This document shows, piece after piece, positions 14,968 to 30,011 of a stretch of 64,000 nt of DNA (the first letter of the stretch is position 1; each line of letters opens with the position of its first letter). The stretch comes from Acidobacteriota bacterium (lineage in GTDB: Bacteria > Acidobacteriota > UBA6911). A model generated the notes under the pieces. The model was not told where the DNA came from and searched no databases. It saw only the letters and a list, made by a program, of their open reading frames with translations. The translations under genes and the position numbers were made by a program. The stretch is from the NCBI GenBank assembly GCA_016934295.1, contig JAFGTD010000082.1:72-64071 (forward strand). The letters run 5' to 3'.

Positions 14968-16233
14968 ATGCTTCTTATCAAGAATATTTCGCAGGTTGTC
15001 ACTCTAAGCGGAGGCCCCGTACCCAGAACAGGGGACGCCATGTCCGATCTCGGGATCATTGATAACGGCGCCATTCTGATTCACGGTGACCGTATCGTAT
15101 GGATCGGCCCTACTAAAGACATCCCGGTTCGCGAACCGGGCATTCGATACCAGACCCTGGATGGGGTTGGCCTGGATTTGATTGCATTGCCGGGCTTTAT
15201 TGATTCGCATACCCATCCTGTTTTTGCCGGTGCCAGGATCGAGGAATTCGATCTTCGTTGCCAGGGCAAGAAATTCCAGGAGATCGCGTCCGAAGGCGGA
15301 GGCATCATCAAGAGCGTTCGAGATTTTCGTGCAGCGACCGTTGAACAGTTGCTGGAGAAGACCGAACGCAATTTCAGGCAATTCCTGAGCCACGGCACAA
15401 CCACGATCGAAGCAAAGAGCGGATACGGGTTGACGCTGGAGGATGAAATAAAAGCGCTGCAGGTACTGGATGTCCTCAACGGCCGCAACCGTCTGGAAGT
15501 CGTATCCACCTTTCTCGGGGCCCATGCCATTCCGGAGGAACTGGCGGATTCCCGCGACGAATATATTCGGAACCTGATCCAGATCATGATCCCGCGCATT
15601 GCCCAGGAAGGTCTGGCGCAGTATTGCGACGTATTCTGCGAAGAAGGTTATTTTTCAGTGGATGAAGCGCGTTCCATCCTGATCGCGGCTAAGGCTGCGG
15701 GGCTGGGACTACGGATTCATGCCGACGTGTTGGGGCGCAATGGAGGCGCCAAACTCGCGGCGGAACTTGGAGTCCGCAGCGCCGATCACCTCAGATGGAT
15801 CAACGATTCCGATATAGAAGACCTGAAACAGTCCGGCGTGATGGCAACCCTTCTGCCTGGAACCGCATTCAACCTGGGACTGGAGCGCCACGCGCCCGCC
15901 CGTAAACTCATCGCCGCCGGCGTACCGGTGGCGCTGGCGACCGATTTCAATCCCGGCACCTGCTACACCATGAACATGCAGATCATCCTCGCCTTTGCCT
16001 GCCAGAAAATGCGGATGTCTCCTGCCGAAACAATTACCGCAGCCACAATCAACAGCGCGTATTCGCTCGGGCTCTCCGACCGGCTGGGCACACTTGAAGA
16101 GGGGAAACAAGCGGATATTATATTAATGGGCGTATCGGATTATCGGGAGCTACCCTATTTCTTCGGGGTCAATCATTGTATTGTTACGATTAAAAAGGGG
16201 AATATCGTAATCAATCGCCTGGAACGGCCGTGA
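14968..16233 (+). CDS. hutI: Imidazolonepropionase
   Basis: PGFIDSHTHPVFAG, GGGI, EAKSGYGL, CDVFCE, ATDFNPG. Confidence 0.9.
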   Translation: MLLIKNISQVVTLSGGPVPRTGDAMSDLGIIDNGAILIHGDRIVWIGPTKDIPVREPGIRYQTLDGVGLDLIALPGFIDSHTHPVFAGARIEEFDLRCQGKKFQEIASEGGGIIKSVRDFRAATVEQLLEKTERNFRQFLSHGTTTIEAKSGYGLTLEDEIKALQVLDVLNGRNRLEVVSTFLGAHAIPEELADSRDEYIRNLIQIMIPRIAQEGLAQYCDVFCEEGYFSVDEARSILIAAKAAGLGLRIHADVLGRNGGAKLAAELGVRSADHLRWINDSDIEDLKQSGVMATLLPGTAFNLGLERHAPARKLIAAGVPVALATDFNPGTCYTMNMQIILAFACQKMRMSPAETITAATINSAYSLGLSDRLGTLEEGKQADIILMGVSDYRELPYFFGVNHCIVTIKKGNIVINRLERP

Positions 16234-16921: not shown

Positions 16922-17318
16922 GGTTAGTTATTTTAATACTGGAACTGATAAATTCGGGAGGATAGCGAGAAGAATTATCTAATTTGTTGTTCCGTAGCAT
17001 CTCTCCGAAGGCCATTGAGAGACCTAGCCTGAATTTCACACAGAGATTCACAATAAACTTGTGCAGGTACGTGCGGAGGCGACGCTTCGCCGTCAACGGG
17101 CGAGCTGGTGTAACAGTTTTGGGTGCACCCGCTCCGCTGCCTCGATAAATGCAGCGTGTGAAAAAAATGAAGGCTGGTACAGCTTGGTATTCAGCAACCC
17201 AATAGTAGTTTGTTAGACCCGCTATGGTTTGCCCGGCTCCATAAATCAGGCAGACCATTTATCCTTAGTTACACATGACAGCAGAGCGGGAGAAACATCC
17301 TGGAAAGGAGCAGTTCTT

Positions 17319-18113
17319 TTGAAGATAATTGCAGAAAAAATCAACGGGACGCGAAAACGAGTAGCCCAGGCTATTCAGGAACGCGATGCGGAATTCATTC
17401 AGAATCTGGCCAAAGAACAGACCGAAGCCGGCGCTACCTGGCTCGATGCCAATGCAGGCACCGCCCCACAGCGCGAACCTGAAGACCTTATTTGGCTTGT
17501 CGAAAACATTCAGGCTGCCGTCGACACACCGATAGCCCTGGACAGCGCCAATCCGAAGGCCCTGGAGGCGGCAATCAAGGTTGTCAAAAAGAAGCCCATG
17601 ATCAATTCGATCAGCCTCGAACCGAGTCGCCTGGATGTATTCCCCATCGTAGCCGAACATAAGTGCCCGGCAGTCGCGCTGGCCATGGACGAAAAAGGCA
17701 TTCCAAAGACAAAGGGAGAACGGATCGACATCATCGGTCAAATTCTGGAAAAAACGCGCGCGATGGACATCCAGGATGACGACCTCTATTTCGACCCGCT
17801 TTGCATGACTATAGGAACAGGCCAGGAAAACGCACTGCTCTTCTTTGACACTGTCCGCGAAATCCGCAGTAAATTCCCGAAAGTTCACGTAACATGCGGC
17901 TTGAGCAACATCTCGTTCGGGATGCCTGCTCGTAAATACATCAACCGGATCTTCCTTGCTCTGGCTATGCAGGCGGGGCTGGATTGCGCTATTACCAACC
18001 CGAACAGCAAGGACATTCAAACCGGCATACTGGCGACCGAACTGTTGCTGAATCAGGACAAGCATTGTCTGAAATACACCCGCGCATTTCGTGCAGGAGT
18101 TTTTAACGAATAA
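17319..18113 (+). CDS. Methyltetrahydrofolate:corrinoid methyltransferase (AcsE/MtqA-like pterin-binding, MT2)
   Basis: TTG start after AAGGAG; IIAEKINGTRK, WLDANAG, LDSANP, MINSIS, CGLSNISFGMP. Confidence 0.9.
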   Translation: MKIIAEKINGTRKRVAQAIQERDAEFIQNLAKEQTEAGATWLDANAGTAPQREPEDLIWLVENIQAAVDTPIALDSANPKALEAAIKVVKKKPMINSISLEPSRLDVFPIVAEHKCPAVALAMDEKGIPKTKGERIDIIGQILEKTRAMDIQDDDLYFDPLCMTIGTGQENALLFFDTVREIRSKFPKVHVTCGLSNISFGMPARKYINRIFLALAMQAGLDCAITNPNSKDIQTGILATELLLNQDKHCLKYTRAFRAGVFNE

Positions 18114-18185
18114 CATCCCGTTTAAGAAAAGCATTAGTATTCCTGAATAACATTTACCCAAAGAAGGAAGTAAAAAGGAGAGCAT

Positions 18186-18824
18186 ATGTCGAAAGAATTA
18201 GTCGATCTCGTCGTTGACATGCGTGAGGAAGAGGCAGTAAAGCTTGCCGAGAAACTGTTGGAAGAGGGCGCGGAACCGCTCGGTCTTCTGGATGATTGCC
18301 GTGAAGCTCTCGGCATCATCGGAGACAGGTTTGCCGCAGGCGAGTGCTTCGTTCCGGAACTGATCCTGGCCGGTGAAATGCTGCGTCAGATCGGGGCTCT
18401 GGTAAAACCGAGGATCGAAGCTTCGGGCGAAGGTGCCCAGGAAAAAATCGGGAAGATCGTCTTCGGAACCGTTGAGGGCGACATACACGATATCGCGAAG
18501 GACATCGTGGTATTCATGCTCGATATCAACGGCTTTGACGTGATGGATCTCGGCGTGGACGTTCCTGCGGCCAAGTTTGTAGAAGCTGTCAAGGAATTCA
18601 AGCCCCAGGTCGTCGGACTCAGCGGATTCCTGACACTGGCCTACGATCCTATGAAGAACACCGTCCAGGCCCTGAAGGATGCCGGTCTGCGCGATGACGT
18701 GAAAATCATGATCGGCGGCGGACAGATGGACGACAACGTTGCCGCGTATGCCAAAGCGGATGCTTATGGGAAAGACGCCATGGCAGCCGTGAATCTGTCC
18801 AAAGGATGGATAGGAGTGAAATAA
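18186..18824 (+). CDS. Cobalamin-binding (corrinoid) protein
   Basis: GTVEGDIHDIAK (DxHxxG variant), DLGVDVP, VGLSGFLT, MIGGG; N-terminal cap domain. Confidence 0.93.
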   Translation: MSKELVDLVVDMREEEAVKLAEKLLEEGAEPLGLLDDCREALGIIGDRFAAGECFVPELILAGEMLRQIGALVKPRIEASGEGAQEKIGKIVFGTVEGDIHDIAKDIVVFMLDINGFDVMDLGVDVPAAKFVEAVKEFKPQVVGLSGFLTLAYDPMKNTVQALKDAGLRDDVKIMIGGGQMDDNVAAYAKADAYGKDAMAAVNLSKGWIGVK

Positions 18825-18825
18825 T

Positions 18826-20172
18826 ATGCCAAAACCGGAAAATTTCGATAAGTTGACACCCGATCAGAAACGCCAGGCGCGCCTGGAAGCCTGGGTAAAT
18901 CATGAAGGTATCGAATTTACCGATCCTGCTGCTGAAAAAGGATACAAGGAACGCGCACAGCTGTTTGCCGACGTCTTTCAAATGAAGAAGCCCAAACGGC
19001 TGCCCGTCGCGATCGCTACAGGATTCTTCCCGTTCTTATATGCCGGGTATAGCTGCAAGGACGCCATGTACGACACCGACAAGCTCGGCAAGGCAATGAA
19101 AAAATTCCATGCCGATTTCATGCCGGATACCGCTGCATCCGCCGGGCTTTACGTTCCGGGAAAGGTTCTGGAAATCCTGGACTACAAGCTCTACCACTGG
19201 CCGGGCCACGGCGTGCCGGAAAATACGTCCTACCAGTGCGCGGAAGCGGAGTTCATGAAGCCGGACGAATACCAGGCTTACCTGGACGACCCGACGGATT
19301 TCTTCATTCGCACGTACCTGCCCCGGGTCATGGGAGCCCTGGAACCCTGGAAAGAGCTTCCACCTTTCACGGATCTTCTCGAACTGCCTTTTATCCCCTG
19401 GGGCATGCTGCCCTTCGGACTGCCGCATATCCAGGAAACCTTAAAAAAGCTGATGGAAGCCGGTCGGCTTTCCCTGGAATTTGCCGGGAAAATCGAAGAA
19501 ATCGACAACGATATCATTACCAGCCTAGGACTGCCCAAATACCAGGGAGGATTCTCGAAGGCGCCGTACGACGTTATCGCGGACACCATGCGCGGGACCC
19601 GGGCGATAATGCTCGACACCTTCCGCAAGCGCAAAGAGATTATGGCAGCGGCCGAACGCAATATTCCCTTTATGACGAGAATGCCTTACGGTGCGTACTC
19701 CTGGGGAGGGCCTCCGACCGCATTCTTCCCGCTGCACAAGGGCGCGGACGGTTTCTTGTCACCGAAAGATTTCAAGGAGCTTTACTGGCCGTCCTTCAAG
19801 GCCGTCATGCTCAATCTGATCAAAGACGGCATGATTCCCTTCCTGTTTGTCGAAGGAAGCTACAACCAGCGGCTGGATATCATCACAGATCCCGACATTC
19901 CGGCCGGCAGCACCATCTGGTACTTCGACAAAACGGATATGGCGGAAGTCCGGAAACATCTGCAGGGTTATGCATGCTTTGCGGGCAATTTCCCTTCTTC
20001 ACTTCTGGCGGCCGGAACTGTCGATCAGGTCAAGGATGGAGTCAAAAAGCTGATCGACACCTGCGCCGGAGACGGCGGATACTATGTGGTCAACGGCGCG
20101 GTTCTGGACGAAGCAACACCGGAAAACCTGCATGCGTACGTCGACACGGCGAAAGAATACGGCGTTTACTAA
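18826..20172 (+). CDS. Uroporphyrinogen-decarboxylase-family protein (putative substrate:corrinoid methyltransferase, MT1)
   Basis: APYDVIADTMRG, PLHKGADGFLS, FVEGSY, FAGNFP, CAGDGGY; coupled to the corrinoid gene. Confidence 0.8.
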   Translation: MPKPENFDKLTPDQKRQARLEAWVNHEGIEFTDPAAEKGYKERAQLFADVFQMKKPKRLPVAIATGFFPFLYAGYSCKDAMYDTDKLGKAMKKFHADFMPDTAASAGLYVPGKVLEILDYKLYHWPGHGVPENTSYQCAEAEFMKPDEYQAYLDDPTDFFIRTYLPRVMGALEPWKELPPFTDLLELPFIPWGMLPFGLPHIQETLKKLMEAGRLSLEFAGKIEEIDNDIITSLGLPKYQGGFSKAPYDVIADTMRGTRAIMLDTFRKRKEIMAAAERNIPFMTRMPYGAYSWGGPPTAFFPLHKGADGFLSPKDFKELYWPSFKAVMLNLIKDGMIPFLFVEGSYNQRLDIITDPDIPAGSTIWYFDKTDMAEVRKHLQGYACFAGNFPSSLLAAGTVDQVKDGVKKLIDTCAGDGGYYVVNGAVLDEATPENLHAYVDTAKEYGVY

Positions 20173-21863: not shown

Positions 21864-24368
21864 TCAAAGGAACCGCACCTCGTGCTCCAGTCGTTCGGCA
21901 ATCTCTTCATAGGTGGCATCGGACGGGAAAAGGACAGGATTGCCGAAACGGACCGTAACGTCTCCATGCTTCCGGGGCCATGTGAAGCGGTAATCCATAA
22001 TTTCGAATACTCCCTGTATTTTGGACGGAACCACAACGGCATCCAGTTCCTTCACAAGTAGCCCGACGCCGGCCTTGAATTCCTTCACCGTGCCGTCCTG
22101 AGAAAGCTTGCCTTCCGGGAAAATCATAATGGACCATCCCCGGTCCATGAGTTTCCCGGTATACTCGAGGCTCTTCTTGATTCCGGCATATCGCTGGAAG
22201 GGGAAGATGTTGAGTCCCAACAGTGCCAGAAAGGATGCCGATTTCCGGAAAATCCGCTCCTTTAAAGGCGCCTGGCCGGAGTCCCATTCCTGGAAGACGT
22301 CGGCTGCCGCAGCCACTGCCATTCGCTTCCGGACGCGCCAGGGAAGCGCCATTGTCAGAACACCGGCATCCAGGTGGCTGATGTGATTGGCTATAAGTAT
22401 AAACGGTTTGTCGAGTCCGTCGAATTTTTCCCGACCCATAATCCGGAGCTTCATGTAATACCGCATAACCGGCCGTATGCACACCGCCTGCAGCAGGCGA
22501 CGAATACAAACGGCCCAGCGGGTCAGCGGCCAGAGCTTGTACTTCGTATCCGACGTTTTTCTCTGAGAAGCAACAAATTCCTCAAGCTCCCCGACAGTCG
22601 TCCGGTCGGTAATGAGAGATTCATCCAGTTCAACCCGCAGCTCTTCCTCGATAATGCCGACCAGTTCCACCCTGGAAAGGGAGTCAAGCTGCAGATCCAG
22701 CCCCAGGGTTGCCGTTGGGGTTACACGGTTTGCGGGAACATTAGATATGGATCGAATGATGCCGTATATGGGATCTCCATTCTCGACGGGGGCGGTCGCC
22801 TCCGTTGCCACGCCATGGTTCGCCTCTAGCGCTTCCAGAACAAACCGCCTCTGGATTTTCATTGTCGTCGTGCGGGGAAAATCCGGTTTGTCCCAGACCG
22901 TATATGCCTGGACTTTCTGGTGATCCGCAAGGTTGGCGTTCGCCGTCGCAACGATCGCTTTCCCGTCGCTTGCGTCTTCGCTCAATAGCAGTACCGCGTG
23001 GATAACGGTCTTACCTTCCTGCTCTCTGCCCAGGACACAGGATTCCTTGACTCCCGGAGTCCGGTTCAGCTCGGCTTCAATATCTTCCGGGTAAACATTC
23101 ATGCCGCTGGCGGTCAGGATCATATTTTTAATTCTGCCCTTGATGCACAGATACCCCTCGGAGTCTGTCTCTCCGACATCCCCGGTTCGGTACCAGCCGT
23201 CTGTAAAGTACATTTCCTGTAAATCCGGCCGTTTGTAATACCCCTGGGTGACATTGTCTCCCCTGACGAGTATCTCCCCTTCACTGGAGAGCTTTATTTC
23301 CTGTCCCGGCAAAACCCGGCCTACGGTCCCGGGACGCGGATCCGCGACCGTGTTGCAGGTTACTATGGGAGAGGTTTCCGTAAGACCGTATCCCTGGACA
23401 ACCTTCAGGCCGAGGTTGTTCCAGAAGTCTTCGACCTCACCATCCAGAGGCGCTCCTCCGACGGCGAAAAAGGCCAGGCGGTTTCCGAATTTTTTATGCG
23501 CCGATCGGAACAGTATCTTCCGTAATCCCCGCGGCAATCTCCAGGCCAGGCCGAGCATTCGCTCGAAACTTCTCGTCATGCCCCTTGATTCTACCTCTCT
23601 CAGAATTCCATCGCGAAAAGTCTGGAGCATTAAAGGAACGGTGATAACGGAGGTGATCCCCTCTTCCTGCATGGCCTGCATAATCGCGGCTGATTTCCGT
23701 GTTCTCAGATAGGTTATCGAACAACCGTAGAAGAGCGGGATAAAGAGCCCGGCGTTCTGCTCCAGCATATGACTCAGCGGCAGCACGGAAAGGAACTTCC
23801 AGTCCGTATCGTAGGAAAGCACTTCACTCAGAGAGGCGATGTTCGACACAATATTTTTGTTCGTGAGAATGACACCCTTCGGTTCCGCCGTCGTCCCCGA
23901 GGTATAGACAATTTCCAGTATGTCGTCTCCCGCGATTTCAGGTTCCTTGAATATCGGCGGTATTTCACGCACCTGTCGGGAAAGGTCTCCGGTATTCCAC
24001 CACGTTATGCCCGACTCGATACTCATGAATTTTGATTTGATGCCGGCCTTCGCGCCGGTTTCGGCGGCTATATGCCGAACAAAATCGGGTTTTACACGCG
24101 CATCCAGGGGAACGGCAATCACTCCGGTCAGGGAACAGGCCAGAAGCGCCGCCACCCATTCCGGGCTGTTAGGAGCCCACAGCAGGATCGCATCGTCCTT
24201 TTTCAGACCGTGACGCTGATACCAGTTGGCCATCCGGTACGCATAATCGTAGAGGTCGAGATACGATATGCGAATCGACCGGAAACCCGTTTTGAAAACT
24301 AGCGCCTCCCGGTCATGGAACTTATAGAGTATCGGTTTGAAATAGTTCGTAAGCGTGTCGCTGTTCAT
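21864..24368 (-). CDS. Acyl-CoA synthetase-ACP-acyltransferase (PlsC) fusion
   Basis: YTSGTTAEPKG, QGYGLTETSP, WYRTGD; ACP motif LDSLSRVEL; PlsC motifs NHISHLD and IFPEG. Confidence 0.9.
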   Translation of the reverse strand: MNSDTLTNYFKPILYKFHDREALVFKTGFRSIRISYLDLYDYAYRMANWYQRHGLKKDDAILLWAPNSPEWVAALLACSLTGVIAVPLDARVKPDFVRHIAAETGAKAGIKSKFMSIESGITWWNTGDLSRQVREIPPIFKEPEIAGDDILEIVYTSGTTAEPKGVILTNKNIVSNIASLSEVLSYDTDWKFLSVLPLSHMLEQNAGLFIPLFYGCSITYLRTRKSAAIMQAMQEEGITSVITVPLMLQTFRDGILREVESRGMTRSFERMLGLAWRLPRGLRKILFRSAHKKFGNRLAFFAVGGAPLDGEVEDFWNNLGLKVVQGYGLTETSPIVTCNTVADPRPGTVGRVLPGQEIKLSSEGEILVRGDNVTQGYYKRPDLQEMYFTDGWYRTGDVGETDSEGYLCIKGRIKNMILTASGMNVYPEDIEAELNRTPGVKESCVLGREQEGKTVIHAVLLLSEDASDGKAIVATANANLADHQKVQAYTVWDKPDFPRTTTMKIQRRFVLEALEANHGVATEATAPVENGDPIYGIIRSISNVPANRVTPTATLGLDLQLDSLSRVELVGIIEEELRVELDESLITDRTTVGELEEFVASQRKTSDTKYKLWPLTRWAVCIRRLLQAVCIRPVMRYYMKLRIMGREKFDGLDKPFILIANHISHLDAGVLTMALPWRVRKRMAVAAAADVFQEWDSGQAPLKERIFRKSASFLALLGLNIFPFQRYAGIKKSLEYTGKLMDRGWSIMIFPEGKLSQDGTVKEFKAGVGLLVKELDAVVVPSKIQGVFEIMDYRFTWPRKHGDVTVRFGNPVLFPSDATYEEIAERLEHEVRFL

Positions 24369-24449
24369 AATAACCTCACCGGGAAATCCCGTATAACAAT
24401 TGTGCAATTGCTGCACACATGCGGAAGATAAAGCTCCTGGAGATTAACA

Positions 24450-25460
24450 TCAGCAGTCGATGACTATTTTGATGCCCTCGCGTCTTTCAGCCGCATCATA
24501 GGCACGGGACACTTCCGACAGTGGGAAACGATGCGTCACCATCGACCGGACATCCACCTGCCTGTTTTGAACAAGTTGAATCGATCTTGGATAGGTATGT
24601 TTCATCCTGTGCACGACATGGAGGGTCAAATCTTTTCGCCTGGCGGTTGATGCGGAGAATGCCGTCCTGTCGTCGGACGGGATCCCGATCAGGCACACAT
24701 TGCCGCCAGGCTTGACGGCATCGATTGCGGCACTAACTGCAGCAGGATCTCCGGCCGCTTCGAACACCACATCCACACCACGGCCTCCGGTTGCCATTAT
24801 AATTTTCTCTGCTTCCCGGCCGCTGTCGGCCTCGAGCACTGTCGCTCCGACCGTTCGTGCCGCCTTGATACGATGAGTTATGCCGGGCAATTCCGTAGCA
24901 AAAATGGACGCCGCACCCGCTGCACGCGCAACCTGGATCAAACAAAGTCCTATAGTGCCGCAGCCGAATACACCCACACTCATACCCGGATTCACATTCC
25001 CGCAGTCAACGGAATACAATGCCACCCCAAGAGGTTCGAGCATGACACCCTCGATATCGGTCATCGAATCGGGGAGGCTAATGAGGGACTGCTCCGGCCA
25101 GGCGATATACTGTCGGAGGGCGCCGTCATGCGGCGCATGGCCCGCGAAGCGCAGATTTGAACACAGGTTCGGATTCCCCTCCAGGCAGAACTCACATTTT
25201 CCGCAGGGGCATGCCGGGTCAATCGCCACGCGCTCCCCCTTTCTCGGGCCGGATTCAATCACGCCCGCGCATTCGTGACCCAGGACGAGAGGCTCCACAA
25301 CCCTGTCGCTTCCGATACCTCCGTCTCTCAGCCAGTGCACATCCGATCCGCAAACGCCGACAGCCGTTATGCGCACAATTGCTTCATTCTCTCCGGGAAC
25401 CGGCATCGGCTCCTCATGAAGGCGCATGTCTCCGATACCATGGATTCGAGCTACCTGCAT
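24450..25460 (-). CDS. Zinc-dependent alcohol dehydrogenase (sorbitol/threonine DH-like)
   Basis: GVCGSDVH, GHECAG, CGKCEFCLEG..NLC, GCGTIG. Confidence 0.92.
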   Translation of the reverse strand: MQVARIHGIGDMRLHEEPMPVPGENEAIVRITAVGVCGSDVHWLRDGGIGSDRVVEPLVLGHECAGVIESGPRKGERVAIDPACPCGKCEFCLEGNPNLCSNLRFAGHAPHDGALRQYIAWPEQSLISLPDSMTDIEGVMLEPLGVALYSVDCGNVNPGMSVGVFGCGTIGLCLIQVARAAGAASIFATELPGITHRIKAARTVGATVLEADSGREAEKIIMATGGRGVDVVFEAAGDPAAVSAAIDAVKPGGNVCLIGIPSDDRTAFSASTARRKDLTLHVVHRMKHTYPRSIQLVQNRQVDVRSMVTHRFPLSEVSRAYDAAERREGIKIVIDC

Positions 25461-26016: not shown

Positions 26017-27198
26017 TCATCTTTCTTCCCCACTCTGTATTAAAGACTCATCCGCCTCTTTATTGGAAGGTATCTGTAAAATTCCGTTACCTTCTACGTC
26101 CTCCAGATCGCACCACCACTTCTTTGTGTAATCGGGCTTCCCGTAACCCAGGACATCATCCAGCCAGGGGGCGAGGCTTCTGGCCAGGGATGAATGGCGG
26201 AATAAAGCACCGGCGGCACGATGCAGGGGCGTATACGGCTTGTTCCAGGGACAAACGGTCAGGCAGGTGCCGCAGCTGGTGCCTTTCTGGTTCCCAACCC
26301 GCATGGACGTGCATTTTTTTATGTCACCGGGCCAATGCTCATACCCTTTTTCCATAACCTTGTCGCCGTCGCTCAGCGCTCCGGACGGGCATTCCCGTGC
26401 ACATTTCCTGCACTTGGTACAGAAGTCCTGGAGGCCGAAATCGATGGGCTTGTCTGCAAGCAGGGGCAAATCGGTGGTGACGATCCCGGCTTTGAACCTG
26501 GGTCCCAGAAACGGATGAAGAACGCATTCGCTCATACGGCTCATCTCGCCCAGTCCCGCCCATAGAAGTATAGGTGGAACGATGACCTGGTAATTCATGG
26601 CGTGATGCGCCCGGGCAGGGTAGCCGAGTCTTCGAATGTAATCCGCTACTAGACAGGCAATGAAACCGGAAGCGGAATAGGCAACAAAACTCATCGCATT
26701 GCTGATCCAGTCGCTGCCGGTCGTGGCGTCGGCCGTTTTCGAATCCTGGTCCACAAGAATGGCAACCGCATATTTATGGTCGAGCGTAATCGCCCCCCCC
26801 GTTGCCGCACTGTGAGTGTATACGGCGTATCTAGGAAGCTCACAAATCCCGACGGCATCGGCTCGGAGAAAATAGGCCGTTTCCTTAATATGGTGCGACA
26901 GATAGACGGGATCCTTTGATATGGGCGCCTCCCGCGCTGCAACGGGCCCGTCTACCATTTCACGCATTCTCAGCTGCATGGCCATAAGGGAAGCGGAAAG
27001 CGGATGCTTTACGGAGAAACGATTTCTCTCCCTTTGAAGAAAAGGACCGAACTCTCCCCGCAGAGCCCGGTTGAACCCATGGTCCTGCTCATGAACCCTC
27101 CGTATTTCCTCCTCATGTATTTTTATGGTCGGACGATCGACCCTTTTGATTTTGTGCATCGGGAAGGTTTCCCGTTCACGCCTCAGATACCCGCTCAT
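26017..27198 (-). CDS. rdhA: Reductive dehalogenase-like B12/2x[4Fe-4S] protein without TAT signal
   Basis: KIKRVDRPT, FLRADAVGICE, AGLGEMSR, GPRFKA, TTDLPL..DKPIDFGLQDFCTKCRKCARECP, C-X12-CGTCLTVCPWN; GGAG RBS before ATG 27198. Confidence 0.8.
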   Translation of the reverse strand: MSGYLRRERETFPMHKIKRVDRPTIKIHEEEIRRVHEQDHGFNRALRGEFGPFLQRERNRFSVKHPLSASLMAMQLRMREMVDGPVAAREAPISKDPVYLSHHIKETAYFLRADAVGICELPRYAVYTHSAATGGAITLDHKYAVAILVDQDSKTADATTGSDWISNAMSFVAYSASGFIACLVADYIRRLGYPARAHHAMNYQVIVPPILLWAGLGEMSRMSECVLHPFLGPRFKAGIVTTDLPLLADKPIDFGLQDFCTKCRKCARECPSGALSDGDKVMEKGYEHWPGDIKKCTSMRVGNQKGTSCGTCLTVCPWNKPYTPLHRAAGALFRHSSLARSLAPWLDDVLGYGKPDYTKKWWCDLEDVEGNGILQIPSNKEADESLIQSGEER

Positions 27199-27308
27199 AA
27201 TTTCTCCCAGGATGGATTCAAAACCTGCCAGCATCATACCTTCATCTTCAAATTCAGGTGAATTATTTTGTTTCGTTGCGCGGATACAAAAGAAAAGACA
27301 TTTTTTTC

Positions 27309-27345
27309 TTGACAAAATATTATCTAGTACTATCATATAGTACTA
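27309..27345 (+). promoter_or_regulatory. Sigma70 promoter with a putative BlaI operator; likely leaderless transcript
   Basis: TTGACA 27309-27314, TATCAT 27331-27336; TAGTACTA-N5-TAGTACTA at 27325-27345 overlaps the -10 box and ATG 27345. Confidence 0.7.
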
Positions 27346-27725
27346 TGAGACCTAAAAATAATACCCTCAGCGGGCCACAACTCGACATTATGAAAGTAGT
27401 CTGGCGGCTGGGCGAAGCAACCGTGCGAGACGTTTACGAGGATCTGCGCAGCCGGCGCTCCATCGCCTACACAACCGTCATGACCACAATGAAAACCATG
27501 GCAATCCGGGGACACCTGAAAAAGAGGACCGAAGGCCGGGCTTTCGTCTATGCAGCCACCACACCCGAAACCAGAATGCTCAAAGGGATTGTGGGCGATT
27601 TTATCAACCGGGTCTTCAACGGGTCTACCGAGCCTCTACTGGCGCATTTGGTAAAGGAACGGCGTCTTTCCGAAAAGGACCTGGAAAAAATCCGCAAGAT
27701 GATCCGGGAGGAAGAAAAGCAGTAA
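27345..27725 (+). CDS. BlaI/MecI/CopY family transcriptional repressor
   Basis: QLDIMKVVW...TVRDVYE...IAYTTVMTTM...GRAFVY...FINRVFNGS. Confidence 0.93.
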   Translation: MRPKNNTLSGPQLDIMKVVWRLGEATVRDVYEDLRSRRSIAYTTVMTTMKTMAIRGHLKKRTEGRAFVYAATTPETRMLKGIVGDFINRVFNGSTEPLLAHLVKERRLSEKDLEKIRKMIREEEKQ

Positions 27726-27746
27726 ACCTTAACCTGAGAGGACACC

Positions 27747-30011
27747 ATGGCACTCCCCGTCTGGATGGACAACCTCCTCGCCTATTGTCTGCAGATGGCG
27801 ATTCTGGCTGCCGCGGGCACACTGTTGGCGTATATCTTCCGTCTGCGCATTCCGCGGATATCGCTCATCTACTGGCAGGTTCTTCTGATCGCCTGCCTGG
27901 CACTTCCCCTTATGCAGAAGTGGGAAAAACCGGCCGCCGTTTCCACGGATGTCACCATTCAGATGACGGAAATGACAATCCCGAATACGGGTACGGGAGT
28001 GGTTTCATCCCCGCCATCGAGTCCGAAGATATCGGCAACCGATGCCGTTGTGCTGATATTTGCGGCGGGGGCATTGCTGCGGCTGTTTTGGCTGGCCCTC
28101 GGTTTTTACAGGCTGCGCCTGTTATTGCGCCGATCGGAACCGATCGACCGGATGCCGCCTGTCGCCGAAAGAATTTCTTCACTTATCGGTGTTCGGGCGC
28201 GCTTCTATCTGTCCGATGAAACGGACAGTCCCGCTACATTTGGAATCTTCAATCCGACGGTCATCCTGCCCCGGACATTTCCTGAAATGCGCGAGGCCTG
28301 CAGGGAAGCCATCCTTTGCCACGAACTCCTGCACGTACGGCGGCGCGACTGGGCGCTGATATTTATTGAAGAGATGATACGCACCCTTTTCTGGTTTCAT
28401 CCCGCCGTCTGGTGGCTGCTCTCAAGAATCCATCTTACCCGGGAACAGTCCGTGGACCATGAAGTCGTCAGACTGACGGGAAACCGGCAGCCTTACCTGG
28501 ATTCATTGCTGGAAATCGCCCGGAAGCTCGGGCGTCCCAGGGCGGTTCCGGCACCGCTTTTCCTGAGAGAGCGCCACCTGGTCGAGCGGGTCGCTCTGTT
28601 GATAAAGGAGGTTTCCATGAATCGATTGCGATTGGTGCTCAGTTTATCCGGAATAGCCGTGATCCTGGCGGGAACGGTAAGTCTTGCCGCCGGGTGGTTT
28701 CCTCTAACAGGTCCGGCTTTAATTGTCCAGGAAGAGATCTCTGCTGAGAAAATCGATTCTCAACAGGTTCATCTCCCCGACGCTCAGTCAGATCCAACTC
28801 CGGCACCAACACCCCAGACGCAAACCGTTTCCCAACCGATCAGGCTGAAGCAACCGACAGGCAGCGAATCAAACGGTAAGTTCGAGCTGCATTATTCGGA
28901 TGCGGATCTGAGGTCTTTTATTCAGCAGATCTCCGAACTTCTCGGTCTGACGCCGCTGATAATCGATCCGGAGGTACAGGGAACCGCTACCGTTCATAGC
29001 TCGGAGCCGATATCGAAAAGGGAAGTCCTTGACCTGTTTAACCTTACCCTCAAAAACAATAATGTATCTTTGATCAAGCAGAACGGTATTTATCTGGTTG
29101 TACCATTATCCGCCGACCTGAAAACGGATGTCGACAATATCAAACATCAGGCAGCGTACATCACATATGAAACCACGCCGAAGAATTCAGCGATACCTCG
29201 TCAGGAAGAAGGCGGCATAGTGGGGAAAATACCTGGTGGCGTTGTCGGTAGTTTTGTCGGTGTATCAGACGATCCGGGATCGGGAGGAGGGACCGATACC
29301 AGCGAGGGTGCGTTTGTAGGTCCTGGAGAGGGCGGTGGCATGGGGAGTTATTCTTCCCGGCAAACCACGACAAGAATCGGCAGCAATGTTCTCCAATCCA
29401 AACTCATTCACCGGGTCGCACCTGTTTATCCTGAGGAGGCCAAAGCCGGACAAGTCATATTAAATATAACCGTGAATGAAAAGGGCGAAGTCTCGAACGT
29501 TGAAGTGCTTGACGGCGATCCGCTTTACATTGACGCCGTTGTGGCGGCGGTGAAGCAGTGGAAGTACGAACCGACCCTTCTGAACGGCACACCCATTCCG
29601 GTTATCTCCACCATTACTGTAAAACGTAATGTTGTTTCACCCACGCAGTTTGTTTCGCCCACGGAAATACCGATAAATCCGAACCCCGAAAATGCCGAAT
29701 GGATTGACGGCAATGTTCTTCAATCCAAACTCATTCACAAGGTTGATCCCGAGTATCCTGAACTGGCCAGGCGAGCGCGCGTTAAGGGGAAAGTCAATTT
29801 AGCCGTAACTGTAACCGAAGAAGGCTATGTCTCCAACGTTGAAGTGATTGGCGGCCATCCCATGCTCCGGGACGCTGCTGAAAAAGCAGTAAAGCAATGG
29901 AAGTATGAACCGACTGTACTGAATGGCAAAGCGATTCCTGTCATCGCAACGGTTACAGTTGATTTTGTTTTGCCGGAAGATACGGAAACCGACGAGTCCC
30001 CGCCAATGTAA
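27747..30011 (+). CDS. BlaR1-like M56 peptidase fused to a secretin N0-like domain and two TonB C-terminal domains
   Basis: SPATFG...HELLHVRRRD...WFHPAVW...REQSVD (M56); DADLRSFIQQISELLGLT-LIIDPEVQGTATV (GspD N0-like); two YP...VKQWKYEPT.LNG TonB_C repeats. Confidence 0.85.
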   Translation: MALPVWMDNLLAYCLQMAILAAAGTLLAYIFRLRIPRISLIYWQVLLIACLALPLMQKWEKPAAVSTDVTIQMTEMTIPNTGTGVVSSPPSSPKISATDAVVLIFAAGALLRLFWLALGFYRLRLLLRRSEPIDRMPPVAERISSLIGVRARFYLSDETDSPATFGIFNPTVILPRTFPEMREACREAILCHELLHVRRRDWALIFIEEMIRTLFWFHPAVWWLLSRIHLTREQSVDHEVVRLTGNRQPYLDSLLEIARKLGRPRAVPAPLFLRERHLVERVALLIKEVSMNRLRLVLSLSGIAVILAGTVSLAAGWFPLTGPALIVQEEISAEKIDSQQVHLPDAQSDPTPAPTPQTQTVSQPIRLKQPTGSESNGKFELHYSDADLRSFIQQISELLGLTPLIIDPEVQGTATVHSSEPISKREVLDLFNLTLKNNNVSLIKQNGIYLVVPLSADLKTDVDNIKHQAAYITYETTPKNSAIPRQEEGGIVGKIPGGVVGSFVGVSDDPGSGGGTDTSEGAFVGPGEGGGMGSYSSRQTTTRIGSNVLQSKLIHRVAPVYPEEAKAGQVILNITVNEKGEVSNVEVLDGDPLYIDAVVAAVKQWKYEPTLLNGTPIPVISTITVKRNVVSPTQFVSPTEIPINPNPENAEWIDGNVLQSKLIHKVDPEYPELARRARVKGKVNLAVTVTEEGYVSNVEVIGGHPMLRDAAEKAVKQWKYEPTVLNGKAIPVIATVTVDFVLPEDTETDESPPM

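Follow-up and report, generated by a model that had tools for sequence, protein, structure and literature searches.

Both the turnover of organohalides under anaerobic conditions and bioremediation depend chiefly on reductive dehalogenases (RdhA). Respiratory RdhAs are membrane-bound, sensitive to oxygen and difficult to produce, and to our knowledge the soluble RdhAs studied to date are large proteins from aerobic Proteobacteria. Here we analyse a short rdhA gene in a 64,000-nucleotide stretch of DNA, referred to as the window, from an Acidobacteriota bacterium of the genus UBA6911 (assembly GCA_016934295.1, contig JAFGTD010000082.1, positions 72 to 64,071 of the forward strand). A first-pass annotation of the window had described the product as a minimal, non-respiratory RdhA related to the soluble enzyme NpRdhA, a description that is supported by the family score, the structure match, the phylogenetic tree and the conservation of the catalytic residues.

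NpRdhA comes from an aerobe and has about 700 amino acids, of which about 250 form a vestigial N-terminal duplicate of the cobalamin-binding core; it is encoded beside a ferredoxin reductase and two ferredoxins. The enzyme functions in vitro with ferredoxin and flavodoxin reductase (PMC10463259). The vestigial duplication distinguishes catabolic from respiratory RdhAs; by mimicking the dimer interface of PceA, it keeps NpRdhA monomeric (PMC10463259, Fisher et al. 2023). In the active site Ser422, Lys488 and Arg552 hold the hydroxyl group of the substrate, Tyr426 is positioned to protonate the dehalogenated carbon, and the activity of the K488Q and R552L variants is severely compromised (PMC7565698). 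BhbA (Comamonas sp. 7D-2) and JtRdhA carry out cytoplasmic reductive dehalogenation of ortho-halophenolics; besides the vestigial N-terminal domain they have a C-terminal PDOR-type NAD(P)H reductase and comprise about 1,040-1,090 amino acids. Respiratory RdhAs, such as PceA of Sulfurospirillum multivorans (4UQU; PceAB, 8Q4H) and the CprA-type ortho-chlorophenol dehalogenases, combine a single cobalamin-binding core with a ferredoxin-like domain, are exported to the periplasmic face by the twin-arginine translocation (Tat) route, anchored by RdhB and coupled to quinol.

Shorter soluble forms have also been described. A clade that lacks the Tat signal and RdhB and is sister to NpRdhA/BhbA was reported in 2016 from marine Dehalococcoidia and Desulfobacula (PMC4959651), and cytoplasmic RdhAs were found in Desulfatiglans and other Deltaproteobacteria in 2018 (PMC6129605; PMC6299228). 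A 'simplified cytosolic type', on average 395 residues long and devoid of the vestigial cobalamin-binding domain, is characteristic of Desulfobacterota and Chloroflexota (PMC12219181, Microbiome 2025).

The window protein resembles this simplified cytosolic type in length (393 amino acids), in its relationship to NpRdhA, and in having no Tat signal, transmembrane helix, RdhB, vestigial domain or reductase domain. The host differs: the Acidobacteriota genus UBA6911 is not among the main carriers listed, which are Desulfobacterota, Chloroflexota and Pseudomonadota (PMC12219181). With NpRdhA the protein has in common the catalytic module, two [4Fe-4S] motifs, the equivalents of Ser422, Tyr426, Lys488 and Arg552, the cytoplasmic location, the lack of a fused reductase and the need for a separate electron donor, whereas the vestigial duplicate is absent and none of the three redox-partner genes that accompany NpRdhA is found near the window gene. 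It falls into the same superclade as BhbA and JtRdhA, whose type of reaction it may by analogy catalyse, but has neither of their additional domains. The respiratory enzymes belong to the same superfamily but are only about 21% identical to the window protein; since neither PceA, a homodimer, nor the window protein has the vestigial domain, the two resemble each other in domain count. The epoxyqueuosine reductase QueG (5D08, 5D0A) also uses cobalamin (B12) and two [4Fe-4S] clusters and has a related fold, but the template-modelling score (TM-score) is only about 0.40.

Family assignment and active site

The protein encoded by the window gene scored 194.1 bits against the NCBIfam profile TIGR02486 (RDH), for which the cut-off is 160.35; a search of the genome DNA gave 184.6 bits. 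The QueG profile TIGR00276 gave 31.2 bits versus an equivalog cut-off of 200, and Pfam recognised only ferredoxin-type dicluster (Fer4) domain(s). The best match among PDB sequences was NpRdhA (4RAS, 6ZXU and related entries; E = 1e-111), with residues 57-417 of the 439-residue form of the protein (see below) aligned to NpRdhA residues 260-623; PceA (6e-33) and QueG (3e-5) were weaker matches. A profile built from 127 homologues, compared with the PDB, scored 500 bits with NpRdhA, 145 with PceA and 31.5 with QueG. Pairwise identity to NpRdhA 261-622 was 45.5% over 354 aligned residues. Judged from these comparisons, the resemblance to RdhA is a homology-level match to a protein of solved structure, and the motifs are not chance occurrences.

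The two Fe-S motifs named in the first-pass annotation, CX2CX2CX3CP and CX12CX2CX3CP, are present exactly as described (Table 1). All eight cluster cysteines, as well as Ser170, Tyr174, Lys236 and Arg300, align with their NpRdhA counterparts and are invariant across the 127 homologues. The same annotation had pointed to AY, SR and GPRFK as segments contributing catalytic residues. This was correct for AY (Tyr174 in FVAY, equivalent to Tyr426) and for GPRFK (Lys236, equivalent to Lys488), but the catalytic arginine lies in TSMR: the sole SR dipeptide, Ser220-Arg221, aligns with Ser472-Arg473 of NpRdhA and not with Arg552.

Predicted structure and missing domains

An AlphaFold2 (AF2) model calculated from the 127-sequence alignment was used; a first run on 36 sequences had given a predicted local distance difference test (pLDDT) value of 55 and was discarded. 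The monomer model had a pLDDT of 90.2 and a predicted TM-score (pTM) of 0.90. When it was compared with the PDB by Foldseek, NpRdhA ranked first, with a query-normalised TM-score of 0.90-0.91 and a root-mean-square deviation of 1.4-1.6 Å across some 371 columns. With normalisation to the longer NpRdhA, the score was 0.52, which corresponds to half of that protein. The scores for PceA and QueG were 0.61-0.67 and 0.38-0.41, respectively. The model has the RdhA fold with a cobalamin-binding core, the binding of a corrinoid being a prediction. According to the model, the 393-residue protein comprises the whole catalytic module of an enzyme like NpRdhA, with no additional part. Because the vestigial N-terminal domain, which mimics the PceA dimer interface and renders NpRdhA monomeric, is absent, the protein is probably a homodimer like PceA.

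No Tat leader was detected: the N-terminal stretch MSGYLRRERETF is devoid of a hydrophobic h-region, with a maximal 15-residue hydropathy of -0.28 in the first 60 residues of the protein. There is no membrane segment in the protein, for which the top 19-residue hydropathy is 1.48. Neither a small RdhB-like open reading frame (ORF) with several transmembrane helices nor an ORF with a ferredoxin motif was found between positions 16000 and 38000, a region covering 10 kb around rdhA. At the C-terminus the protein ends 23 residues past the part that aligns with NpRdhA, with no PDOR-type NAD(P)H reductase domain, and at the N-terminus it begins at the equivalent of NpRdhA residue 250-260 or so, with no vestigial cobalamin-binding domain. 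The hydropathy, the ORF scan and the domain search thus bear out the earlier statement that a twin-arginine leader, an rdhB gene and a fused reductase are all missing.

The window gene has neither the Tat signal nor the adjacent rdhB that characterise respiratory RdhAs. It also falls outside the strict definition of a catabolic RdhA (NpRdhA/BhbA), as it lacks the vestigial domain, although the mechanism is very probably alike. Its length, the absence of Tat signal, transmembrane helix, RdhB, vestigial and reductase domains, and its position in the tree agree with the simplified cytosolic RdhA, the comparison being with the description given in PMC12219181. That the protein belongs to the RdhA superfamily and is located in the cytoplasm we regard as nearly certain.

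Phylogeny and selection

The tree (IQ-TREE, LG+C20, quick search) comprised 99 catalytic domains and was rooted on the QueG of the window's own genome, a metagenome-assembled genome (MAG) of 5.45 Mb in 343 contigs with 93.8% completeness. The window gene grouped with its orthologues from two MAGs of the same genus, L001 and L002, with an approximate likelihood-ratio (SH-aLRT) support of 100. This trio, nested among Syntrophorhabdales and 'delta proteobacterium' sequences, was placed within a clade of 20 rows consisting of short forms throughout (SH-aLRT 99). A superclade of 51 rows (99) contained this short clade together with the NpRdhA/self-sufficient clade (100) and two more clades of short forms, in which Dehalococcoidia are represented. 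It also held a group of four sequences with RRSFL/RRDFL N-termini, one of which was classed as Tat-bearing by a crude filter.

Clustering with QueG, which the first-pass annotation had named as an outcome that would speak against its reading, was looked for in the same tree and did not occur: QueG was a distant outgroup, with a total branch of 4.57. A true QueG is encoded elsewhere in the genome (C2:3102-4277; 376.7 bits). We rejected QueG as the identity of the window gene on the strength of this separate gene, the family scores, the phylogeny and the structural match. The genome also contains a 358-residue paralogue of the QueG/RdhA superfamily (C324:24696-25772, plus strand; N-terminal RRELLQRV), which scored 71 bits with the QueG and 40 bits with the RDH profile, far below the cut-offs.

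The two orthologous loci are locally syntenic with the window and about 80-85% identical to it at the nucleotide level, and their proteins are 91% (L001, uncultured Acidobacteriota bacterium) and 86% (L002, Acidobacteria bacterium UBA6911) identical to that of the window. The ratio of non-synonymous to synonymous substitution rates (dN/dS) relative to L001 and L002 was 0.069-0.074, at a dS of about 0.8-0.97, which indicates that the gene is under strong purifying selection. The possibility that it is a truncated pseudogene of a long NpRdhA-type gene was rejected on account of this ratio, the conserved N-terminus and a model that forms a complete domain.

Start site and upstream region

Counted from its first ATG, the ORF extends over 26017..27336 (minus strand) and has 439 codons. 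The start proposed earlier, the ATG at 27198, proved to be the right one, as it is fixed by the conserved N-terminus MSGYxKR, from which 35 and later 126 homologues align. It is almost certainly the real start in view of this conservation, and an SD (Shine-Dalgarno)-like GGGAG (27208-27204) lies 5 nt before it. The in-frame ATGs farther upstream are located either within a -10-like box or within a palindrome, TACTATCATATAGTA, which abuts the start of the divergent blaI gene. We rejected the 439-residue form as the true product: the extension is missing in the homologues and overlaps both the -10-like box and the palindrome. As blaI begins 146 nt upstream of rdhA, there is no room for a further N-terminal domain.

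A scan for a sigma-70-like consensus identified a probable promoter and leader with 9 of 12 matching positions (Table 1). The proximal stretch 5′ of rdhA is kept upstream of the orthologues in both L001 and L002.

Table 1. Features of the rdhA locus and of related loci; positions refer to the window unless another locus is named
Feature	Position	Strand	Basis or remark
Coding sequence of rdhA (393 codons and stop) for a cytoplasmic RdhA homologue of the short, 'simplified cytosolic' kind	26017..27198	-	TIGR02486, NpRdhA match, conserved N-terminus, dN/dS, AF2, Foldseek
First Fe-S motif, C260-x2-C263-x2-C266-x3-C270-P271	26386..26421	-	aligns with NpRdhA C512/C515/C518/C522; invariant in 127 homologues
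Second Fe-S motif, C296-x12-C309-x2-C312-x3-C316-P317	26248..26313	-	contains R300; invariant in 127 homologues
R300 (in TSMR), equivalent of NpRdhA R552	26299-26301	-	alignment
Active-site helix N167-A-M-S170-F-V-A-Y174	26677..26700	-	S170 = NpRdhA S422, Y174 = Y426
G232-P-R-F-K236	26491..26505	-	K236 = NpRdhA K488 (Tyr/Lys dyad, hydroxyl binding); K236 invariant in 127 homologues
Probable rdhA promoter and 5′ leader	27199..27262	-	-35-like TTCACC 27262-27257, -10-like TATGAT 27238-27233, SD GGGAG 27208-27204
In-frame 5′ extension of the mechanical ORF, non-coding	27263..27336	-	overlaps blaI operator palindrome TACTATCATATAGTA starting at 27328; absent from homologues
Perfect palindrome TACTATCATATAGTA abutting blaI start	27328-27342		conserved in L002 as TACTATATAATAGTA
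blaI	27345-27725	+	divergent from rdhA
blaI and BlaR1-M56/GspD-N0/2xTonB_C fusion gene	27345-30011	+	upstream of rdhA, divergent
GH2 glycosidase remnant, 129 aa	25504-25893	-	directly downstream of rdhA; absent from L001 and L002
Zn-dependent polyol-type dehydrogenase	24450-25460	-	downstream of rdhA
Acyl-AMP ligase/acyl carrier protein (ACP)/acyltransferase fusion	21864-24416	-	downstream of rdhA
Corrinoid methyl-transfer set: Pterin_bind methyltransferase, B12-binding corrinoid protein, URO-D-family methyltransferase	17229-20172	+	domain matches
Nitroreductase-family loci	L063:8757-10158, L064:5623-7024, L014:550-1218, L022:9514-10239, L051:4127-4837		PF00881 match

Distribution of the short form

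In a protein search against a word index, 2,845 relatives had E <= 1e-10. All of the best 120 were 351-428 residues long and 65-89% identical to the window protein; those named by their source are called 'reductive dehalogenase', '3-chloro-4-hydroxyphenylacetate reductive dehalogenase' and, in three cases, 'ferredoxin'. Close homologues are labelled 'reductive dehalogenase [Acidobacteriota bacterium]' by NCBI and JGI. Both the N-terminus and the length, about 380-393 residues, are conserved in more than 100 homologues. The homologues of the window protein include sequences from Desulfobacula, Desulfobacterales and Dehalococcoidia. Among representatives of clusters formed at 50% identity, we found short proteins (about 385-425 residues), proteins with the N-terminal duplication (about 650-740 residues), proteins with the duplication and a reductase (about 1,040-1,090 residues), Tat-bearing proteins, and proteins with N-terminal transmembrane helices.

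Hosts of the short clade belong to Thermodesulfobacteriota, Chloroflexota, Acidobacteriota, Myxococcota, Bacteroidota and Fibrobacterota and include one Hodarchaeota MAG, a mixture of phyla that points to frequent horizontal transfer. We surveyed 61 genomes, the window's own and 60 relatives, of which 30 belong to the genus and 31 to other genera of the family or class. Short rdhA genes or fragments were present in 8 of the 30 (including the window's own) and in none of the 31. Their distribution is patchy, with at least three different contexts within the genus, which appears to have acquired rdhA horizontally. One genome, G001, was considered as an 'empty site' for comparison; it has an orthologue of the dehydrogenase, but in an unrelated context that allows no clean comparison.

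Gene neighbourhood

The GH2 remnant downstream of rdhA joins positions 120-140 of the TIM-barrel profile straight to the C-terminal domain 5. It was not copied from another gene of the genome, in which the best other matches are 31-34% identical. On the other side, blaI and the BlaR1 fusion gene are kept in L002 but missing from the L001 site, where about 450 bp stand in place of about 3.1 kb. A role of BlaI/BlaR1 as a dedicated regulator of rdhA is unsupported, the pair and the palindrome being present in L002 and not in L001, though the proximal upstream stretch is kept. The B12 operon that had been noted in the neighbourhood is real and lies 5.8 kb from the rdhA stop codon (corrinoid methyl-transfer set in Table 1); its tie to rdhA, however, is one of proximity, with no functional coupling seen. 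No activase is adjacent to this set, and no cobalamin riboswitch was found in the window.

To compare neighbours, the ORFs from 48 loci with a short rdhA were clustered. No universal neighbour, redox partner or membrane anchor was common to the 48 loci, only lineage-specific neighbours. Downstream of rdhA there is a GntR/FCD regulator gene in 8 loci and a gene for a TRAP-type DctP solute-binding protein in 10, mostly in Syntrophorhabdales; a divergent sigma54 activator accompanies rdhA in 8 Desulfobacterales loci. The Syntrophorhabdales-type loci (L003, L005, L007, L011, L012, L018, L033, L037 and neighbours) combine GntR/FCD and DctP, with no obvious DctQM in the ORFs examined, and some of them have two rdhA paralogues. 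This TRAP/GntR context, which is absent at the window locus, fits the uptake and catabolism of an aromatic acid by these relatives.

A flavoprotein of the nitroreductase superfamily (PF00881) adjoins the short rdhA in five loci from several lineages. In two genomes of the same genus (G028 and G005) rdhA is followed by this flavoprotein and then by a reductase of flavin mononucleotide (FMN) that is NADPH-dependent (PF03358). The nitroreductase-family neighbour gave weak matches to BluB (65-85 bits versus a cut-off of 150) and to iodotyrosine deiodinase (IYD; about 40-45 bits, below the cut-off); possible roles are those of a redox partner, of another dehalogenase or of a gene connected with the cofactor. 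Together with the FMN reductase it is a candidate for an NADPH-linked electron donor, but the pair is absent at the window locus. A homologue of the flavoprotein with 58% identity is encoded in the window's own genome, at a site unlinked to rdhA (C38:4244-4915).

Host physiology

Three to four genes for POR_N-containing 2-oxoacid:ferredoxin oxidoreductases are present in the host genome and are plausible sources of reduced ferredoxin. The genome also has genes for heme-copper oxidases, therefore the host is probably facultative or microaerotolerant. At least four candidates for corrinoid enzymes were counted: the corrinoid methyltransferase protein, QueG and two RdhAs.

The second rdhA is of the respiratory type (C233:2445-4004). 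It encodes 519 residues, with the twin-arginine motif SRRNLLK followed by a hydrophobic stretch, and scored 158-161 bits with TIGR02486. A 97-residue ORF with three hydrophobic helices, resembling RdhB, directly follows it, so that the pair spans C233:2141-4004. As read from the sequence, the MAG carries genes for both a respiratory-type and a cytosolic-type dehalogenase. Literature linking UBA6911 to dehalogenases was not found. The earlier remark that this lineage is not known for dehalogenation needs toning down in view of the pair of genes for a Tat-bearing RdhA and an RdhB-like protein in the same MAG, and of the 8 genomes of the genus that carry the short gene or pieces of it.

Discussion

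Taken as a whole, the results make it likely that the product of the window gene is a short-type reductive dehalogenase, soluble and cytoplasmic, that depends on a corrinoid and two [4Fe-4S] clusters. The mechanism that we propose is drawn by homology to NpRdhA. A separate low-potential donor would deliver electrons singly; our best guess is ferredoxin or flavodoxin reduced by pyruvate/2-oxoacid:ferredoxin oxidoreductases, and in some relatives the adjacent flavoprotein pair may serve as the donor. The electrons would pass through the two clusters (Cys260/263/266/270 and Cys296/309/312/316) to the protein-bound corrinoid. An ortho-halogenated phenolic compound would bind with its hydroxyl group held by Ser170, Lys236 and Arg300 and with the halogen against the cobalt. 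The carbon-halogen bond would be cleaved reductively, Tyr174, paired with Lys236, would protonate the carbon, and the dehalogenated phenol and the halide would leave. The role of such an enzyme would be catabolic or detoxifying, or that of a cytoplasmic electron sink, rather than membrane-coupled respiration. By analogy with the characterised relatives, a substrate from the ortho-halogenated phenolics is reasonably probable, though not necessarily the 3,5-dibromo-4-hydroxybenzoate used by NpRdhA; ferredoxin as the donor is put forward with less confidence than the substrate class.

Several observations weigh against this interpretation. The hydrophobic wall of the pocket differs from that of NpRdhA at four positions (Phe290 to Gly41, Pro311 to Ser62, Ala419 to Asn167 and Met423 to Phe171), so the actual substrate may differ from that of NpRdhA. 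The literature searched yielded no enzyme assay for a protein of the short clade; the activity and the substrate therefore rest on homology. No matches to CobS (PF02654) and CbiC (PF02570) were obtained in the MAG (94% complete), and the supply of the cofactor would rely on uptake: the host is probably a corrinoid auxotroph that imports complete corrinoids. The conserved neighbours of the window rdhA are a generic polyol-type dehydrogenase and the acyl-AMP ligase/ACP/acyltransferase fusion, and no transporter, regulator or redox partner at the window locus is clearly dedicated to rdhA.

Some of these points would also suit a reductase of the RdhA-QueG superfamily that depends on B12 and Fe-S clusters and performs another reduction, of an epoxide or of a different leaving group on a phenolic metabolite, with 'dehalogenase' as a carried-over annotation. 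The missing assays and the four altered pocket residues favour it, as do neighbourhoods that vary and mostly contain nothing halogen-specific (sugar-acid genes in G024, the polyol dehydrogenase at the window locus, a gene for an M24 peptidase in several of the Desulfobacterales); moreover, QueG shows that the fold is capable of non-dehalogenating chemistry. We nevertheless consider it unlikely, because the full Ser/Tyr/Lys/Arg set is invariant across the 127 homologues, the score exceeds the curated RDH cut-off, and dehalogenases are the closest relatives of known function in all directions of the tree. In addition, the family is commonest in organohalide-rich anoxic sediments (PMC12219181).

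Slightly less probable still is that the enzyme takes part in energy-conserving organohalide respiration, either recruited by a partner encoded elsewhere, to the membrane or into a respiratory complex, or acting as a ferredoxin-oxidising sink coupled to Rnf- or Nuo-type energy conservation. Organohalides appear to matter to the organism, as judged from the pair on contig C233; cytoplasmic RdhAs have been suggested to re-oxidise respiratory cofactors (PMC6129605), and in certain microbes the cytosolic type may contribute to the conservation of energy (PMC12219181). Against this stand the lack of a Tat signal, of a transmembrane helix and of an RdhB within 10 kb, the lack of a membrane partner conserved in the 48 loci, and the non-respiratory nature of the characterised relatives NpRdhA and BhbA. 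That the gene is what remains of a long NpRdhA-type gene after decay or truncation, with loss of the N-terminal domain, or that it is QueG, is very improbable. It is true that the GH2 remnant shows decay in the region, that only the C-terminal half of NpRdhA is matched and that QueG has the same fold; but the N-terminus and length are maintained in more than 100 homologues, dN/dS is 0.07, the model of the monomer shows a complete fold at high confidence, the short forms make up a clade of their own outside the long ones, and the QueG score of 31 bits is far from the cut-off of 200 that the true QueG exceeds.

The dehalogenase interpretation leaves a finding that confirms and extends earlier work and is not surprising: the architecture and the distribution have already been published, and the homologues are already annotated. 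New here is the host genus, for a described subtype that has no known assay. As for the wider picture, we tentatively suggest that the short clade represents the ancestral, homodimeric form, from which NpRdhA/BhbA were derived by internal duplication, and that it carries out a widespread, ferredoxin- or flavoprotein-driven dehalogenation of natural ortho-halophenolics (for example, acids derived from halotyrosine) in anoxic soils and sediments, opening these compounds to non-specialist heterotrophs including this genus. If this were true, Acidobacteriota would be unrecognised players in the natural halogen cycle, and enzymologists would gain a minimal soluble RdhA.

A soluble RdhA of 393 residues that consists of the catalytic module only, with a fully conserved halophenol site and under strong purifying selection, is an attractive minimal model, and with the window protein a subtype common in metagenomes could be put to a first test of function. 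With regard to ecology, the locus adds an uncultured genus of Acidobacteriota, with rdhA genes of both the cytosolic and the respiratory type, to the likely transformers of organohalides.

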